NCBI GenBank assembly: GCA_947496355.1
Contig: CANMCO010000012.1
Location: 9,705-73,704, forward strand
Reading direction: 5' to 3'
DNA length: 64,000 nt
From: an uncultured Aquimarina sp.
Lineage (GTDB): Bacteria; Bacteroidota; Bacteroidia; Flavobacteriales; Flavobacteriaceae
The notes under the pieces are model-generated. The model was not told the origin of the DNA. It saw only the letters and a program-made list of their open reading frames with translations, and ran no database searches. How positions within the stretch are numbered: the first letter of the stretch is position 1; every line of letters starts with the position of its first letter. The translations under genes and the position numbers were made by a program. Shown here in pieces: positions 19,608 to 32,709 of this stretch.

Positions 19608-20114
19608 CTAAAAAGATATTTCTATAAATAATTTATCTTTTGGGGAAATAGTCCATAGCTTTCTTATTAGTTTTTCAAGATCATCTTGAAGTTGATGCTC
19701 ATCTAGGTAATCAAATATCAAATACCTGTAAACAGCATCTGGTTTGCTTTTTAACAAATCTATTAGTTTAAAATATTCTTTTGATTGCACCCAGTGTTTC
19801 ATTGTAGTAAACAAAGGCAAGGATTCTTCTATACTCACTAACGTACCTGTATCTTTATTTGGATCCGTGGTATCATAAAAAACCCGTTCAAAGATATTGA
19901 TATCACCTCCCGATTGCTTACATATATAAAGTAGTATAGAATCATCCATCCAATCATTTTTCAACCATAATCTATCAATTCCATAACAGTGGGTAAATTC
20001 TGTGTCTAGCCAAAGTAATTCATTAACAACTCCTTCTGAATTCACTGAAACTAAATTCGTACTAGGGCGACCTCCAATTTTAAAGAGTGAATGTGCATCT
20101 TTGATTCCTTTCAT
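19608..20114 (-). CDS. Hypothetical protein
   Basis: 168-aa ORF directly upstream of the ankyrin gene; no recognised motif. Confidence 0.55.
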   Translation of the reverse strand: MKGIKDAHSLFKIGGRPSTNLVSVNSEGVVNELLWLDTEFTHCYGIDRLWLKNDWMDDSILLYICKQSGGDINIFERVFYDTTDPNKDTGTLVSIEESLPLFTTMKHWVQSKEYFKLIDLLKSKPDAVYRYLIFDYLDEHQLQDDLEKLIRKLWTISPKDKLFIEISF

Positions 20115-20313
20115 GAGATATAACCTTGATAAGTATAGTATATCAATAATCTTATTGAAAATACGAAAGTTAATCGTTAAAAAGTCCTAAATTTATTAGA
20201 ATACTTTACTTTATTATTTTAAAAAACAGAAGAGGTTTTTTTGATCATCTTGGATCATGTTTACTGTTTGAATCACATAAAACCTTTATAATAACTAAAT
20301 ATTGAATTAATGT

Positions 20314-20355
20314 AAACAAAAAAATCCGGTTGATGTAACCGGATTTTTTTTGTTT
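20314..20355 (-). terminator. Intrinsic terminator after the micro-peptide cluster
   Basis: aaacaaaaaaatccggtt-gatgt-aaccggattttttttgttt inverted repeat with T/A tracts on both sides. Confidence 0.75.
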
Positions 20356-20368
20356 GCAATTCTATATT

Positions 20369-20527
20369 TTAGCACTTCTGACATAATTCATACTCTAGAC
20401 CTCCAGACTCGTTACCTCCGGTTCCACTGCCTCCACAAGCACAGCTTCTTTCTCCTCCATTAACTTGTGTTAAAACCTTTCTTTCTAATGTTTGTACCCC
20501 TTCTAAGTTTAAAATGTTTGCTAACAT
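20369..20527 (-). CDS. Double-glycine-leader micro-peptide (52 aa), not in ORF track
   Basis: MLANILNLEGVQTLERKVLTQVNGG|ERSCACGGSGTGGNESGGLEYELCQKC; leader paralogous to three other ORFs in the window. Confidence 0.75.
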   Translation of the reverse strand: MLANILNLEGVQTLERKVLTQVNGGERSCACGGSGTGGNESGGLEYELCQKC

Positions 20528-20538
20528 AATTTATACGT

Positions 20539-20574
20539 TCCCTGAGCGTCTAAAGACATTCAGGAATTATGTCT
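20539..20574 (-). promoter_or_regulatory. Conserved 36-nt upstream element, copy 1
   Basis: Transcript strand agacat-aattcctga-atgtct-ttagacgc-tcaggga; homologous to 20934-20969 and 21214-21249. Confidence 0.6.
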
Positions 20575-20681
20575 GCATCGTTTTAAGTACCACTTAACTC
20601 TATTATGCTATTCTGTTTATTGATTGATAATAAGCAAACATATTGTCTGTAAAAATTTTTAAACAACACTTTCCGATTATA

Positions 20682-20720
20682 CTAAATCCAAGGTTACAAC
20701 ATTAGTCTCCTTGGATTTAG
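20682..20720. other. Stem-loop downstream of micro-peptide 20751-20906
   Basis: ctaaatccaagg ... ccttggatttag perfect 12-bp inverted repeat. Confidence 0.55.
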
Positions 20721-20750
20721 AAAGAAATATTAAAATAGATTACTATTCTT

Positions 20751-20906
20751 TTAATAACAATCACATCTCCCGGTATTGCCATCTGGCTTTCCACCTAAAG
20801 GTCCACAAAGAGCGTAACAGTCTACTCTCCAACCTCCATTTATTGACTTTTGTTCTTTGTTACCCAACTTCGTTGCGTTTTCTAACTTTAAAATGTTTTC
20901 TAACAT
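20751..20906 (-). CDS. Double-glycine-leader micro-peptide (51 aa) with defensin-like Cys spacing, not in ORF track
   Basis: MLENILKLENATKLGNKEQKSINGG|WRVDCYALCGPLGGKPDGNTGRCDCY. Confidence 0.75.
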   Translation of the reverse strand: MLENILKLENATKLGNKEQKSINGGWRVDCYALCGPLGGKPDGNTGRCDCY

Positions 20907-20933
20907 AATTTAAGTAATTTAATAATTTATTTT

Positions 20934-20969
20934 TTTCCAAACATTTATAGACAGTCAGAAACTCTGTCT
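20934..20969 (-). promoter_or_regulatory. Conserved 36-nt upstream element, copy 2 (most diverged)
   Basis: Transcript strand agacag-agtttctga-ctgtct-ataaatgt-ttggaaa. Confidence 0.55.
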
Positions 20970-21044
20970 TAATTTTCTTATTCTTGATAAGACAAAGAAT
21001 ACGTCTTTTCTACAAGTCCTTTTTAAAACTATATGATGTCACTT

Positions 21045-21185
21045 TTAATGACACTGGCTGTTTGTGCTACCTGTATGACCATAGCAGTTTAATCCAGGAG
21101 CATGCCATTCTCCACCTTTTACAATGACTTGTTGATTTCTGTCTAATTGATTTACCCCTTCTAAATTTAAAATGTTTGCTAACAT
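21045..21185 (-). CDS. Double-glycine-leader micro-peptide (46 aa), not in ORF track
   Basis: MLANILNLEGVNQLDRNQQVIVKGG|EWHAPGLNCYGHTGSTNSQCH. Confidence 0.75.
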   Translation of the reverse strand: MLANILNLEGVNQLDRNQQVIVKGGEWHAPGLNCYGHTGSTNSQCH

Positions 21186-21213
21186 AATTTATATTGTTTA
21201 ATAATTTATACGT

Positions 21214-21249
21214 TCCCTGAGCGTTTATAGACATTCAGGGATTCTGTCT
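21214..21249 (-). promoter_or_regulatory. Conserved 36-nt upstream element, copy 3
   Basis: Transcript strand agacag-aatccctga-atgtct-ataaacgc-tcaggga. Confidence 0.6.
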
Positions 21250-21352
21250 ATATCCTAGTATTAAATGAGAGCATAATAAATTAATTATAATCGCATTGTT
21301 AAGAACAAATATAGAAGCGGTTATAGGTAAAAGACAAATGAAGTAAGTGGCC

Positions 21353-21384
21353 TTTCAAGGAAAACACACTGTGTTTTCAAGGAA
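21353..21384. promoter_or_regulatory. Tandem TTTCAAGGAA sites, candidate operator
   Basis: TTTCAAGGAA at 21353-21362 and 21375-21384 (22-bp period), between divergent peptide and TPR-AraC genes. Confidence 0.55.
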
Positions 21385-21478
21385 TCAATTGTTACTAAAA
21401 TGATGTCAAAAACAATAAATCCAATTTTTGGTTTTATCCTAAGTAAACCTTTAAATTTGTTGAACAAAATATCTTTAG

Positions 21479-23197
21479 ATGCCATATACCATTCTATTGT
21501 TTCGTATAAAAAGTAAGTGTTTTATACTATTTCTATTATTTAATAGCCTTAATCTTTTTGCATTTCAAACCTCTTATGATAGCTTACTTACCAAAGAGTA
21601 TTCATATCTAAAAAAAATGGTTTCCAAGCATGTAAGGGACTCTTCAAAAGCAAGTATATATATCCAATCGCATCTTTTTAAAGCAAAAAAAGATGTTGAT
21701 ACTACCGAAATAGTGAATGGGTTTTATTATTACTCAGGTATTACTAAGGATGAAAAAATTAAAGAAAAATATCTGGATAGTATGATTCTATTCTCAAAGA
21801 ATCTAAAAACAAAACATTATCCAGCACTTGCATATTATAGAAAAGGAAAAATAGAGTATAATAAAGGTAATTTTAAAAATGCGCTAGATTTATATCTTAA
21901 AACCAATGAAAAAGCAAAAGAATTCGAAAATACCCATCTTTTTTATGCCAGTAAAAAAAGTATAGGAATATTAAAAAGTAGGATTGGAGAACACAAAGCG
22001 GCATTAACAGAACTTAAGGAATGTCATCAATATTATTCAAAATTAAAGAAGGGTAAACCAATAAACTATTTAGGTACATTATTTGCACTGGCCGATTCCT
22101 ATAATTTGAATAAAAAGCTAGATTCGGCAACGACTATGAATATCCTTGGGTATAAAGAATCTATAGCATTTAAAAAAGAAGACTTCAAATACTACTTTAC
22201 ATTAAACGAAGGGATTAATTTATTTGATAAAAAAAACTTTACCACAGCAAGAGATAGTTTATCAATCGCTATTGAAGAGTTTAAAATTAATGACGACAGA
22301 GCCAATCTGTCTATGGCTTACTTTTTTTATGGAAAAACATTGACAGCATTAGGTAAAGAAAAAGAAGCCATTGCTGCACATATCAAAGTAGATGAGATAT
22401 TCGAGGAAATATCTGAAATTATGCCCAATAATCGAGAGAATTATGAAATCTTAATCAATTATTACAAAAAATTAGATGATAAGGATAATCAGTTAAAATA
22501 CATTCAACAGTTAATTACCGTAGATAGTGTATTACACACTAATTATCGATATCTAATGAAAGCTGTAGTACAGAATTATGATACCCCAAGATTACTTTCG
22601 GAAAAACAAGAAATTATAGATAGTTTAGAAACCGGAAAAAAAACATCGTATACAATTATTAGCATTTTGGCAATTGCCAGTCTTTTGCTATTTGTCTTAT
22701 GGTTGATTAATCGACGTAGACAAAAGCAATATAAACAGCGTTTCGAAGAACTCTATTACAAACAAGATGCTCATAAAAAAGAAGAAAATCAAACGGTATC
22801 ACATAAAGAGAAAACAAAACTTGCTATCCCAGAAGAAAGTATTAAAGAGGTTCTTAACAAATTGGCAATTTTTGAAAATGAATTAGGGTTTATCCAACCT
22901 GATTTATCAATTAATTTTTTAGCAAAGAGATTTGGAACCAATTCTAAATATTTGTCCAAAATTATTAATACCTATAAAAAGAAATCATTTAATCAGTACA
23001 TCAATGATTTAAGAATCAATCAATCAATCATAAAACTAAAAGAAGATGCTAAATTCAGGAACTACACTATAAAAGCAATTGCTCAAGAAATAGGCTTTAA
23101 TACTACGGATGCTTTTTCTAAAGCTTTTTACAAACAAAACGGAATCCATCCTTCCTATTTTATAAAAGAATTAGAAAAGCAGATTAAAGCTGTATAA
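21479..23197 (+). CDS. TPR-repeat, single-pass transmembrane, AraC-type HTH regulator (copy 2)
   Basis: TPR helices (GNFKNALDLYL, GEHKAALTEL, GKEKEAIA), TM IISILAIASLLLFVLWLI, AraC HTHs INFLAKRFGTNSKYLSKIIN and TIKAIAQEIGFNTTDAFSKAF; paralog of 6012-7724. Confidence 0.88.
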   Translation: MPYTILLFRIKSKCFILFLLFNSLNLFAFQTSYDSLLTKEYSYLKKMVSKHVRDSSKASIYIQSHLFKAKKDVDTTEIVNGFYYYSGITKDEKIKEKYLDSMILFSKNLKTKHYPALAYYRKGKIEYNKGNFKNALDLYLKTNEKAKEFENTHLFYASKKSIGILKSRIGEHKAALTELKECHQYYSKLKKGKPINYLGTLFALADSYNLNKKLDSATTMNILGYKESIAFKKEDFKYYFTLNEGINLFDKKNFTTARDSLSIAIEEFKINDDRANLSMAYFFYGKTLTALGKEKEAIAAHIKVDEIFEEISEIMPNNRENYEILINYYKKLDDKDNQLKYIQQLITVDSVLHTNYRYLMKAVVQNYDTPRLLSEKQEIIDSLETGKKTSYTIISILAIASLLLFVLWLINRRRQKQYKQRFEELYYKQDAHKKEENQTVSHKEKTKLAIPEESIKEVLNKLAIFENELGFIQPDLSINFLAKRFGTNSKYLSKIINTYKKKSFNQYINDLRINQSIIKLKEDAKFRNYTIKAIAQEIGFNTTDAFSKAFYKQNGIHPSYFIKELEKQIKAV

Positions 23198-23475: not shown

Positions 23476-23655
23476 ATGAAAAACAAAAAATTAAGTTTGC
23501 GGAAAATAACAGTCACAAAATTGGATAACTTACATAATATTCAAGCAGGTGCTCCTGTTTGCCCTACTCTTCCACACGAGAGCTGCACAACAAAACCTTT
23601 TGAAGATGAAGATTTTACAGAAAATGGAACCTTAATAGGTCCCGGGTTTATTTAA
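23476..23655 (+). CDS. Small leader-core peptide (59 aa), not in ORF track
   Basis: MKNKKLSLRKITVTKLDNLHNIQAG|APVCPTLPHESCTTKPFEDEDFTENGTLIGPGFI; paralog of 23675-23875. Confidence 0.75.
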   Translation: MKNKKLSLRKITVTKLDNLHNIQAGAPVCPTLPHESCTTKPFEDEDFTENGTLIGPGFI

Positions 23656-23674
23656 AAAATATACTTCTTAAAAT

Positions 23675-23875
23675 ATGAAAAATAAAAGACTAAGTTTACA
23701 GAAAACGACGATCACTAGACTAAATAATTTGCATAGTGTTAAGGGTGGTAATTTTCCTTCAGAATTTGACACAACTCCAATAGGCACAGCTCCAAGTGAG
23801 AGACCAACAACTAAAACTGCTGAAGGTGATGATTTTACAGAAAACGGAACCCTAACAGTTCCGGGGTTATATTAA
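23675..23875 (+). CDS. Small leader-core peptide (66 aa)
   Basis: Leader RLSLQKTTITRL...VKGG; C-terminus DFTENGTLTVPGLY shared with upstream paralog; no Cys. Confidence 0.72.
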   Translation: MKNKRLSLQKTTITRLNNLHSVKGGNFPSEFDTTPIGTAPSERPTTKTAEGDDFTENGTLTVPGLY

Positions 23876-31556: not shown

Positions 31557-31730
31557 TTAGAAAGGACCTCCTACAGGTCTACAAAAGCATCCTGCACAGA
31601 TTAAAGGATAGCAACATTCTTGATCAGAATGACAAAAATCGTTTAGATTTCCACTTCCTCCATTAATGGATTGTTGTTGATTTTTGTCTAATTGATTTAC
31701 TCCTGATTGGTTTAAAATTGATTTCAACAT
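31557..31730 (-). CDS. Double-glycine-leader micro-peptide (57 aa) with 6-Cys knottin-like core, not in ORF track
   Basis: MLKSILNQSGVNQLDKNQQQSINGG|SGNLNDFCHSDQECCYPLICAGCFCRPVGGPF. Confidence 0.75.
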   Translation of the reverse strand: MLKSILNQSGVNQLDKNQQQSINGGSGNLNDFCHSDQECCYPLICAGCFCRPVGGPF

Positions 31731-31803: not shown

Positions 31804-32709
31804 TCAATACTTCACCCGGCTCGAAATTATTCTTAAATTACTAGTGCCCGCATCTGAGACATATAAGGTTTTTTGGTCTCTACTTGACAAAATACCATTC
31901 GGAAAATTGAACGTAGCTTCGGATACATCTCCATCCGTATCTCCCAACGTACTTCCTGCAAAAACTTCAAAATCATCAGTTGCTCTAGGATTAATTTTAT
32001 AAATTTTATGTTCTCCTATTTGAGTGGCGAATAAAGACCCTTTGGCATACGTAAGAAAACCTAAGAAATTAGCATTAGGAGCTTCTGCCGGTAACTCTGC
32101 AATAAAGGTAACCGCACCATCTTCATATTTGTAGATTTTTCTGTCATTAAAGTTTCCGATATAGGTATTTCCTCTTCTATCAAAAGCAATACCCGCCGGA
32201 CCATTAATAGGAGCTCCTTCAAAAATTTTGGTAATAGTACCATCTGTTTTTAGAACATTAATAGTATTGGTGTTGTACTCTACAAACAACATGTTATCAC
32301 TTCCTGGAATCTTTTTGATTCCTGCCGGAGACACTGCAGGAAAACTGTCTAATAGATTACCATCACTATCATATTTAAAAATAGTATTTCCGAAATTATC
32401 ACATACGTATACTTCATCTTTACTATTAATACCTATCCCATTGGGTGAAGTAAATCCAGTTGCAAATACGGTTACATTTCCTGAGGGATCTAGTTTGTAA
32501 ACATCATCTCCTGGGAAATCAGATCCATAAATATTACCGTGACTATCTTCTGCAAGACCATCATAAAATGCTCCTTCGGTAACTGTGGAAACCGTGGTTT
32601 CGATCTCAGGAACATTTCCCTCTTGACAAGAAATCATAATTGTCGATACGTTTGCAATTAATAAAAGGGCAAGTGCCTTTTTGCTTAAAAATTTGATTGA
32701 TACTTTCAT
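31804..32709 (-). CDS. NHL/SMP-30-type beta-propeller lipoprotein
   Basis: Lipobox MISC; repeats such as SPNGIGINSKDEVYVCD, GPAGIAFDRRGNTYIG, FNFPNGI. Confidence 0.78.
   Translation of the reverse strand: MKVSIKFLSKKALALLLIANVSTIMISCQEGNVPEIETTVSTVTEGAFYDGLAEDSHGNIYGSDFPGDDVYKLDPSGNVTVFATGFTSPNGIGINSKDEVYVCDNFGNTIFKYDSDGNLLDSFPAVSPAGIKKIPGSDNMLFVEYNTNTINVLKTDGTITKIFEGAPINGPAGIAFDRRGNTYIGNFNDRKIYKYEDGAVTFIAELPAEAPNANFLGFLTYAKGSLFATQIGEHKIYKINPRATDDFEVFAGSTLGDTDGDVSEATFNFPNGILSSRDQKTLYVSDAGTSNLRIISSRVKY

Follow-up and report, generated by a model that had tools for sequence, protein, structure and literature searches.

Double-glycine Cys-rich peptide genes of Aquimarina and a conserved structured RNA element in their 5' untranslated regions

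Three short open reading frames (ORFs), read from the minus strand beside a regulator gene in an uncultured Aquimarina sp., raise the question of whether they are genuine peptide genes and, if they are, how their products may be expressed, processed and used. Each would encode a double-glycine (GG) leader followed by a small core with Cys residues. Double-glycine peptides and their exporters are textbook knowledge in Gram-positive bacteria; to our knowledge, they have barely been studied in Bacteroidota.

In this study, we analyzed the window, i.e., the whole stretch of 64,000 nucleotides that contains these ORFs, together with the remainder of the genome and related Flavobacteriaceae. The best explanation of the data, which we hold to be likely as a whole, comprises precursors with GG leaders, their export in trans by a C39-ABC/HlyD system, disulfides introduced by a VKOR fusion protein, and control by a 42-nt RNA. 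Neither the peptide family nor the RNA element nor the C39-VKOR-thioredoxin fusion turned up in a literature search of incomplete coverage.

A dispersed family of Cys-rich peptides

The window ORFs are genuine genes of a large, dispersed, multi-copy Flavobacteriaceae family of double-glycine Cys-rich peptides. An earlier note, made from the DNA letters, had described three such minus-strand ORFs with 4, 4 and 2 Cys and a distant fourth member, TAnnTTTG boxes upstream of two of them, a strong terminator at the cluster end and a divergent TPR-AraC gene, and all of these are present as described (Table 1). TAnnTTTG is the promoter consensus (-7 box) of Bacteroidota, for which a sigma-70 promoter scan is uninformative. 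The terminator is the only terminator-like site in 20100-21600 (shuffle mean, 0.4).

Table 1. Features of the peptide cluster and associated loci. Positions refer to the window unless a contig (C2 or C4) is given.
Feature	Position	Strand	Description
Intrinsic terminator	20318-20350	-	14-bp hairpin, then T-run; closes cluster
pep1	20369-20527	-	52-aa precursor: 25-aa GG leader MLANILNLEGVQTLERKVLTQVNGG, 27-aa core ERSCACGGSGTGGNESGGLEYELCQKC with 4 Cys
Element before pep1	20536-20577	-	S1 AGACA/UGUCU; S2 UUCCUGA/UCAGGGA; model R1, 52.1 bits, E=4.7e-9
-7 promoter box	20635-20642	-	TATGTTTG; 57 nt upstream of pep1 element; pattern search
Hairpin after pep2	20682-20720	-	12 bp, ctaaatccaagg...ccttggatttag, no T-run; would divide pep3-pep2 from pep1 (sequence reading)
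pep2	20751-20906	-	51-aa precursor; leader end ...KSINGG, core WRVDCYALCGPLGGKPDGNTGRCDCY with 4 Cys, CxxxC...CxC
Element before pep2	20931-20972	-	S1 AGACAG/CUGUCU; S2 UUUCUGA/UUGGAAA, two G-U pairs; model R1, 53.1 bits
pep3	21045-21185	-	46-aa precursor; leader end ...VIVKGG, core EWHAPGLNCYGHTGSTNSQCH with 2 Cys
Element before pep3	21211-21252	-	S2 CCCUGA/UCAGGG; model R1, 60.1 bits, E=7.9e-11
-7 promoter box	21306-21313	-	TATATTTG; 53 nt upstream of pep3 element; pattern search
TPR-TM-AraC one-component regulator	21479-23197	+	Divergent from cluster; Pfam HTH_18 4e-12, TPR_12 4.8e-9
pep4 (fourth member)	31557-31730	-	57 aa, 6 Cys; no upstream RNA element in model R1 search
Exporter/HlyD pair	C4:300502-304000		Ortholog of array neighbors in other genera
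C39-like-VKOR-thioredoxin fusion	C2:120134-121723		Adjoins sister peptide gene

The leaders of all four window peptides are hydrophilic, 25 residues long and end in NGG or KGG, and the cores have 21-32 residues. Read from the sequences, leader position -4 is I/V, -8 is E/Q, -12 is L and -15 is V/A; position -7 is Q/K, where double-glycine leaders are expected to be hydrophobic, as at -4, -12 and -15, with an acidic residue near -8. In length (~25 residues), GG end and hydrophobic residues at -4, -12 and -15, these leaders resemble the GG-motif substrates of AMS/PCAT peptidase-containing ABC transporters, e.g., LahT (PMC6363468).

The dispersed set of peptides that the earlier note envisaged was recovered with a leader HMM. 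Run against the genome's complete set of 132,413 stop-to-stop ORFs, it detected 17 members at E<0.2, including 11 at E<=1.2e-11 (pep1, E=7.8e-13), and below these the list drops to noise. At least 292 homologous sequence clusters occur in Flavobacteriaceae (Aquimarina, Flavobacterium, Kordia, Dokdonia). Leaders of relatives end in GG, AG or GS, and the 90% cluster of pep4 contains WP_456516591.1, 'hypothetical protein [Aquimarina sp. 433]'. The leaders, on whose selection the earlier note had staked the reality of these genes, evolve under constraint. Crude pooled Nei-Gojobori estimates (pS 0.3-0.7) of dN/dS over ortholog groups are 0.18-0.37 for leaders and 0.29-0.38 for cores (leader and core, respectively: pep1, 0.37 and 0.29; pep2, 0.18 and 0.35; pep3, 0.18 and 0.38), and Cys residues are invariant within each group. 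Orthologs of pep1 were found in at least five Aquimarina species and those of pep3 in three species, and pep2 orthologs share the pattern C-x3-C-GP-GG-P...C-x-C-Y. The cores had also been called unrelated, which is true between paralogs, and hypervariable or diversifying, which does not agree with the core estimates and overstates the case because each core has clear orthologs in other species.

One might still suppose that these ORFs are chance open frames in AT-rich intergenic DNA that are not translated, given that they are short and mostly unannotated and that their exact sequences are unnamed in the public collection. However, in-frame purifying selection, hundreds of homologs that share the leader and keep the Cys counts, and consistent operon partners already contradict this idea, which retains hardly any probability.

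The peptides have no sequence similarity to known bacteriocin families. The only Pfam hit was that of pep1 to Bacteriocin_IIc (E=0.03; 14.7 bits, below the cut-off of 27.1), and pep2 and pep3 had no Pfam bacteriocin match. Sequence searches of PDB with pep2 and pep4 returned scorpion alpha-KTx toxins (for pep2; E 0.18-0.9) and knottin-like toxins (E 0.8-7); as these matches are nonsignificant and reflect the Cys pattern only, a defensin or knottin fold is not claimed.

A 42-nt element in the 5' UTR

The most unusual feature of the peptide genes is a conserved structured 5' UTR element of 42 nt, with the form AGACA-K-AA-(S2 5')-R-UGUCU-WUAAAUG-N-(S2 3'). Its six copies in the genome all precede GG peptide genes, one of which has a different leader type. 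Of 91 Aquimarina genomes, 64 contain it, as do 9 of the 302 Flavobacteriaceae genera that were sampled. The next ORF is a GG Cys-rich one after 38 of 44 matches in Aquimarina and 25 of 26 in a family-level set (mostly other genera), and a Cys-rich lipoprotein of ~170 aa lies behind the same element in three related arrays. The element is not obligatory, because pep4 and about two thirds of the genome's family members lack it.

The element most likely folds as an H-type pseudoknot, in which the model pairs two helices, S1 and S2. S2 is the MFE fold of the pep1 (z = -2.4) and pep3 (z = -2.5) elements. Both sides vary in six of its seven pairs, pairing holds in 92% of cells, as against 28-53% in slid controls, and the score was reached by none of 500 shuffles. 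In the five inner S2 pairs, G-U exceeds A-C by 19:1, which suggests sense-strand RNA. The element loops and five pairs of S1 are invariant; a sixth S1 pair (columns 9-19) is UA in 14 sequences, CG in 13, UG in 11 and GC in 4, with G.A in 20 of 65. The pseudoknot thus rests on geometry and one covarying pair, because S1 is almost invariant. A candidate upstream ORF starting from an AUG or GUG inside the element was rejected, since invariant third-codon positions together with the covarying S2 indicate RNA constraint and not coding.

The closest likeness is to the preQ1-I, SAM-II and SAM-V riboswitches, which are also ~40 nt long, have invariant loop nucleotides and lie just upstream of a start codon. 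As in these small H-type pseudoknot riboswitches, the proposed fold has two helices, a short L1 and almost no L2, and the A-rich 8-nt L3 could occupy the minor groove of S1. Unlike preQ1-I, SAM-II and SAM-V, the element has no covariance-model match in Rfam 15 (three copies searched at E<=10 gave noise only, e.g., miRNA and sRNA models), and RNAalifold, given the element with 110 nt of downstream sequence, revealed neither a second conserved structure nor an alternative expression-platform pairing. Those riboswitches also precede metabolic or transport genes, whereas here the downstream genes encode secreted peptides and once a Cys-rich lipoprotein, so that no ligand suggests itself. The element is a candidate riboswitch and could equally be a protein-binding or stabilizing element.

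Three of the four window genes would be expressed through this 5' UTR RNA, which most likely acts post-transcriptionally, through translation or the stability of the mRNA, and would form a common control point of the peptide regulon. Could it instead act as DNA, with AGACA-N11-TGTCT serving as the inverted-repeat binding site of a protein in an operator or an unusual promoter? The inverted repeat of AGACA and TGTCT is indeed invariant, many loci have a palindrome (TTCGCGAA or CTTGCAAG) resembling a protein site directly 5' of the element, and a regulator gene adjoins the cluster. Such a site would leave unexplained both the Watson-Crick covariation between segments 15 nt apart and the G-U excess, which is specific to the sense strand. 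Position also speaks for RNA: the element lies 20-29 nt from the AUG in 61 of 63 copies (just 8 nt from the ATG in the case of pep1), whereas anything from 36 to 101 nt separates it from the -7 box. In addition, it is repeated before each gene of tandem arrays and occurs directly after a same-strand upstream gene. We consider a function as DNA very unlikely.

Export and disulfide formation

The earlier note had seen no C39 peptidase ABC exporter in the window and proposed export by one encoded elsewhere. Peptidase_C39 indeed has no match in the window part of contig C12; its five matches in the genome are on contigs C9, C1, C2 (two) and C4, and there are four full C39-ABC exporters, in all of which a conserved (D/E)CG motif occupies the expected position of the catalytic Cys. 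Gene neighborhoods in other genera point to one of them. There, family peptides lie next to a C39-ABC exporter and its HlyD partner or directly between the two, and arrays of element-plus-peptide genes are flanked by the exporter at 6 loci and by HlyD at 6 loci. The pair on C4 is clearly orthologous to these array neighbors (70-76% identity for the exporter and 47-63% for HlyD), whose exporters are only 24-39% identical to the other three of the genome. The C39 peptidase domain of such an ABC exporter, working with the HlyD-family adaptor, would recognize the leader and cut it after GG, and the pair on C4 would serve the window peptides in trans. This assignment is one of orthology, because the window itself has no exporter, oxidase or immunity gene.

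A second recurrent partner is a protein with VKOR (Pfam, 1.4e-14) and Thioredoxin_4 (4.6e-5) domains, for whose domain combination NCBIfam has no dedicated model. Its N-terminal region matches Peptidase_C39 weakly (1.2e-3; 19.2 bits, below the Pfam cut-off of 22 bits). BLASTP of this N-terminus against that of one exporter found nothing, and a small profile from the four exporters did align it; where the catalytic Cys, His and Asp would be expected, the sequence is absent or replaced. HlyB likewise carries a C39-like domain without catalytic residues, and the fusion differs from it in that this domain is joined to a VKOR-thioredoxin oxidoreductase and not to a transporter. The fusion gene adjoins peptide arrays in 10 of 45 loci. 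Genus-wide, 30 of 150 element matches, in 22 genomes, are within 3 kb of a fusion-type gene (chance expectation ~0.3, a rough estimate), and presence and absence of element and fusion are associated across 91 genomes (64/0/11/16; Fisher p = 5e-11, not corrected for phylogeny). The fusion is probably a dedicated disulfide-forming enzyme, in which a noncatalytic C39-like domain would bind the leader, and VKOR and a periplasmic thioredoxin domain would put in the disulfides.

One to three disulfides would lock each secreted core. That the products are disulfide peptides, as the earlier note had it, gains support from this recurrent neighbor and from the Cys counts, which are 4 in 56 and 6 in 49 of the 120 relatives listed. 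As to Cys pairing in the window, pep3 has just 2 Cys.

Cores rich in Cys, Ser and Thr might also be expected of precursors of modified natural products (lanthipeptides, ranthipeptides or sactipeptides) whose enzymes are encoded elsewhere. UniRef gives a few relatives the automatic name 'Natural product', and four LanC-like genes occur in the genome, two of which share the window's contig, ~43 kb past the window end. All four are unlinked to the window cluster and to pep4, one being ~14 kb from another family member. No LanB, LanC, LanM or radical SAM gene occurs within 1.5 kb in any of 45 loci, and the radical SAM partner that the earlier note had suggested looking for comes down to one marginal SPASM match in the genome, unlinked to any member. 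What does recur beside the arrays is a probable disulfide-forming enzyme, the marked preference for 4 or 6 Cys agrees with disulfide pairing, and NCBIfam, including its precursor models, has no match for the peptides. Modified products are therefore highly improbable; in the disulfide model, no further modification enzyme would take part.

Antagonism, signaling and significance

The Aquimarina peptides are somewhat more likely to be an antagonistic cocktail, similar to class II bacteriocins, than signals. In the pediocin operon, a thioredoxin-like accessory protein, PedC, aids the formation of correct disulfides, and a thioredoxin-like protein may have the same part here. As in class II bacteriocin loci of Gram-positive bacteria (the pediocin PA-1 operon, whose layout is given in PMC5465099, and the blp/pln cocktails), a GG leader would be removed by a C39-ABC exporter, mature peptides would be small and contain disulfides, and a locus or genome has several different peptide genes. 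Unlike those loci, the system described here belongs to Gram-negative Flavobacteriaceae and includes an HlyD adaptor, its oxidase is a three-part fusion (C39-like, VKOR and thioredoxin), its genes are dispersed, exporter and oxidase being encoded in trans in this genome, and a structured 5' UTR RNA is present in place of control by response-regulator promoters alone. It also lacks a recognizable immunity gene, with no candidate between 20100 and 21480.

The absence of an evident immunity gene would suit signals, as would the adjoining gene. The TPR-TM-AraC protein may control transcription of the peptide genes that flank it, and the peptides could be sensed in the periplasm by its TPR domain, which would switch on transcription. 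Such a circuit would parallel RRNPP-type peptide signaling (Rap, Rgg, NprR, PlcR, PrgX) in a Gram-negative, membrane-bound form; in RRNPP systems, too, a TPR-domain regulator gene adjoins genes for small secreted peptides. Unlike RRNPP proteins, the regulator carries a signal peptide and a single TM helix, with a TPR domain in the periplasm and an HTH of the AraC type; the peptides differ too, in having GG leaders and disulfides, and would need no re-import. The cluster is divergent from the regulator gene, whose orthologs in 9 Aquimarina genomes (60-84% identity) are flanked by GG peptides in most, not all, cases: such peptides lie upstream in 6 of 9, and GG peptides of a second leader class lie downstream in 5 of 9. 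Two distant regulator paralogs (33-34% identity) also adjoin element-plus-peptide genes, and further TPR-AraC paralogs on C9 and C1 each have an adjoining GG peptide.

These associations within Aquimarina amount to few independent events, however, because most are one syntenic site, and the association is not universal in the family. At 3 of the 9 orthologous regulator loci there are no upstream peptides at all, and arrays sampled outside Aquimarina adjoin the exporter and oxidase, with no TPR-AraC relative within 1.5 kb. Moreover, the many different paralogous cores per genome agree better with a toxin cocktail than with one receptor. We regard signaling through the TPR domain as unlikely. 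Less likely again, in our estimate, is a combined scheme in which the element is a new ligand- or protein-sensing class of pseudoknot RNA that gates translation of a secreted disulfide-peptide regulon across Flavobacteriaceae (responding, e.g., to thiol/redox state or a population signal) and, together with periplasmic TPR-TM-AraC sensors and a leader-docking VKOR-thioredoxin oxidase, makes up an unrecognized Gram-negative system of peptide production and communication.

For the biology of marine and freshwater Flavobacteriaceae, the probable account of exported, disulfide-locked peptides under RNA control defines a system of hundreds of Cys-rich peptides, a specific exporter pair and a dedicated oxidase with its own leader-recognition domain. 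Bacteroidota do not use Shine-Dalgarno pairing, and their translational control is poorly understood; among structured regulatory RNAs, the conserved RNA before the peptide genes is a clean new candidate. Each part of the system is open to ordinary genetics in a tractable relative, Flavobacterium johnsoniae, and the peptides offer a ready library of small disulfide scaffolds for antimicrobial or signaling screens.

Peptide genes of the window and their family

The window contains four short minus-strand genes, pep1-pep4, for peptides with double-glycine (GG) leaders (Table). The leaders of pep1-pep3 begin with ML(A/E)NIL(N/K)LE and carry (N/K)GG at residue 25. The earlier note had proposed three such ORFs with a common leader, a fourth member, two TAnnTTTG boxes, a terminator at the cluster end and a divergent TPR-AraC gene; all were recovered, with ORFs and boxes at exactly the positions given there; the terminator-like site is the only one in the region, and the divergent gene encodes TPR and AraC-type HTH domains.

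Table. Features of the window and of other contigs of the same genome (contig prefix) or compared loci (L prefix)
Feature	Position	Strand	Description	Source
pep1	20369-20527	-	52 aa, 4 Cys in core	minus-strand reading, short-ORF listing of 20100-21500
pep2	20751-20906	-	51 aa, 4 Cys in core	short-ORF listing of 20100-21500
pep3	21045-21185	-	46 aa, 2 Cys in core	short-ORF listing of 20100-21500
pep4	31557-31730	-	57 aa, 6 Cys	
Terminator-like site	20318-20350		closes peptide cluster	
TAnnTTTG boxes	20635-20642, 21306-21313			
TPR-AraC gene	21479-23197		divergent from cluster	
Second-class GG peptides	23476-23875	+	59 and 66 aa	
Element, pep1 copy, with 8-nt spacer	20528-20577	-		
Frame opening in pep3 copy	21067-21234	-	55 codons	
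Rejected element match	32316-32353	-	inside 301-aa ORF 31804-32709	model R1, 19.7 bits, E=0.07
Fusion gene	C2:120134-121723		~530 aa, directly downstream of sister peptide gene	
Exporter-adaptor pair	C4:300502-304000			
GG-peptide island	C9:96700-109000		at least 12 small GG-leader genes	
GG-peptide island	C1:648000-665400		at least 10 small GG-leader genes	
LanC-like cyclase genes	C12:116116-118666, C5:300026-301159, C17:43572-44669		four genes	
Tandem family members	C20:10086-11113	-	four, near-identical, 60 aa	
Lipoprotein gene	L009:57-572		~170 aa, very Cys-rich	

The window corresponds to C12:9705-73704, and relatives of its TPR-AraC protein place the genome (5.03 Mb, 33.8% GC) in Aquimarina, family Flavobacteriaceae. 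When every one of the 132,413 stop-to-stop frames in this genome was searched with a profile built from nine leaders, 17 members were found at E<0.2, with noise beyond. Although the cores are unlike between paralogues, they are not hypervariable, as the earlier note had called them, because each core of pep1-pep3 has orthologues in other Aquimarina species (for pep2, aligned: WRVDCYALCGPLGGKPDGNTGRCDCY / WGSAGCFPQCGPGGGVPNLETGRCACY / RFANCFAICGPTGGQPNGHGCDCY). Cys residues are invariant, and pooled Nei-Gojobori dN/dS values, which are crude (pS 0.3-0.7), point to purifying selection on leaders (0.18-0.37) and are similarly low in cores (0.29-0.38). A profile search of a public protein collection revealed at least 292 homologous clusters (E<=1e-3), from metagenomes and from Aquimarina, Flavobacterium, Kordia and Dokdonia; almost all are annotated just as "hypothetical protein", and no Pfam domain occurs in any of them. 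Counts of 4 and 6 Cys account for 56 and 49, respectively, of the 120 clusters listed, an even-number bias that disulfide pairing predicts. The exact window peptides are present, without names, in an NCBI-derived collection. The 90%-identity cluster of pep4 is represented by a 382-aa protein and has a second 382-aa member, which may reflect gene fusion or miscalling on other contigs. The tandem members on C20 share the core DQTPGMGYCYDPETWWYEHPCGQVCNDGVSYPEYC.

Other GG peptides also occur in this genome. Two of a second class, with the leader MKNK(K/R)LSL(R/Q)K.T(V/I)T(K/R)L, lie directly downstream of the TPR-TM-AraC gene of the window; at orthologous loci of five other Aquimarina species, one or two genes of this kind are similarly placed. 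Outside the window, the islands on C9 and C1 contain paired hydrophobic, Gly-rich peptides resembling two-peptide bacteriocins; both islands have a C39-ABC exporter, an HlyD gene and 2-4 TPR-TM-AraC paralogues, most of which adjoin a peptide with a KLSLKK..I.KL...GG leader. Four LanC-like genes, all unlinked to pep4 and to the window cluster, make it probable that the genome also has class I lanthipeptide clusters.

A conserved element, probably an RNA, upstream of peptide genes

In alignments of upstream regions, a 42-nt block is far better conserved than its surroundings; it has no Rfam match. In the pep3 copy (AGACAGAAUCCCUGAAUGUCUAUAAACGCUCAGGGAAC), two complementarities, S1 (AGACA/UGUCU) and S2 (CCCUGA/UCAGGG), overlap in the order of an H-type pseudoknot. 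Across copies, the loops (L1, 2-3 nt; L2, 0-1 nt; L3, an invariant A-rich WUAAAUGN) would have the lengths that a classical H-type pseudoknot requires. Among 65 distinct copies, six of the seven S2 pairs show two-sided changes and 92% of S2 cells are paired, compared with 28-53% in slid controls, which partly allow for relatedness, and with 0/500 matching shuffles, which ignore it. The five inner S2 pairs contain G-U 19 times and A-C once, an asymmetry that fits RNA of the peptide-coding strand and speaks against both a DNA cruciform and antisense transcription. S1 hardly varies and thus cannot be established by covariation; next to it, positions 9 and 19 behave like an additional, sixth pair (UA 14, CG 13, UG 11 and GC 4, but G.A 20; naive chi-square p 1e-6).

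A covariance model, R1, built from five unaltered copies of this genome with S2 as its only structure, found six copies here, each before a GG peptide gene, one of these with the unrelated leader MKNQKKDLKL...IKGG. One further match, inside a larger ORF and without the conserved loop, was dismissed as a false positive. The element occurs in 64 of the 91 Aquimarina genomes, with at most 10 copies in any one, and, in a family sample, in 11 of the 401 genomes and 9 of the 302 genera; matches in a phylum sample were confined to Flavobacteriaceae. A GG-leader, Cys-rich ORF follows 38 of 44 matches in Aquimarina and 25 of 26 in the family-level set, which comes mainly from other genera; three further copies precede a lipoprotein gene. 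Because at least three leader classes follow the element, it is not merely carried with one leader by gene duplication. The lipoprotein (L009, L014, L016; Aquimarina) lies within peptide arrays and is possibly an immunity or accessory protein.

In 61 of 63 copies the element ends 20-29 nt before the AUG, whereas the canonical -7 box, where found, lies a variable 36-101 nt upstream. The element recurs before each gene in tandem arrays and also stands 50-130 nt past the stop codon of an upstream gene; its position therefore follows the beginning of the coding region rather than the promoter. Between element and ORF, no second conserved structure was found. The pep1 copy ends just 8 nt before its AUG, apparently through loss of 17 nt from an A/U-rich spacer, and in the C20 tandem only the first member is preceded by the element. 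The conserved AUG/GUG (columns 19-21) opens a frame in the pep3 copy that overlaps pep3 out of frame; elsewhere neither its length nor its sequence is conserved. In many loci (L048, L050, L052, L053, L061, L064, L023, L026 and others, but not the three window copies) the element is directly preceded by a short palindrome (TTCGCGAA, CTTGCAAG or CTGCAG), often with ATATTCTCT before it; this palindrome could bind a protein or be part of a promoter that sets transcription start at the element.

Candidate export and disulfide-forming partners

Flanking ORFs were clustered for 45 non-redundant loci of 3 kb, each containing relatives of the peptide genes. The most frequent neighbors were a ~530-aa membrane protein (10 loci), the TPR-TM-AraC regulator (8, Aquimarina only), a C39-ABC exporter (6) and an HlyD-family adaptor (6). 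The earlier note had suggested searching for a C39 exporter or a radical SAM partner; neither radical SAM nor lanthipeptide enzymes appeared among these neighbors. As it had stated, the window lacks a C39 exporter: none of the four full-length C39-peptidase ABC exporters of the genome lies on this part of the contig. The C4 pair is the predicted exporter of the window peptides, acting in trans, since it shares 70-76% (exporter) and 47-63% (adaptor) identity with the genes beside peptide arrays in other genera, and these exporters are only 24-39% identical to the other three.

The ~530-aa protein, a candidate oxidase, is a fusion with VKOR (1.4e-14) and Thioredoxin_4 (4.6e-5) matches and a weak N-terminal Peptidase_C39 match (1.2e-3; 19.2 bits, under the 22-bit Pfam cut-off). 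In an alignment with a profile built from the four exporters, it lacks the N-terminal third of the C39 domain, and the catalytic Cys, His and Asp positions are absent or substituted; judged from this alignment, the C39-like domain is non-catalytic and presumably binds leaders. Of the 91 Aquimarina genomes, 75 have the full-length fusion, many of them in several copies, and no genome has the element without it (both, element only, fusion only, neither: 64/0/11/16; Fisher p = 5e-11, ignoring phylogeny and with many double-negative genomes small or incomplete). Among the 150 element matches listed for the genus, 30, in 22 genomes, lie within 3 kb of a fusion gene, against a rough chance expectation of ~0.3.

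Possible roles of the peptides and the RNA

The fixed distance between element and AUG makes a translational or stability role the most consistent one for the RNA; a ligand-sensing riboswitch is possible but unsupported. For the peptides, we favor antagonism, given the several unlike cores per genome and the analogy with blp/pln-type cocktails. That the peptides are signals appears unlikely, even though a periplasmic-TPR/AraC regulator adjoins the cluster and no immunity gene is evident. The GG-leader precursor would be handled by a C39-ABC exporter with its HlyD adaptor and by a dedicated disulfide-forming enzyme with its own leader-recognition domain, under a common post-transcriptional control element. 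These parts are scattered in this Aquimarina genome, the window holding only peptide genes and regulator, and would add up to a class-II-bacteriocin-like production system fitted to the Gram-negative envelope.
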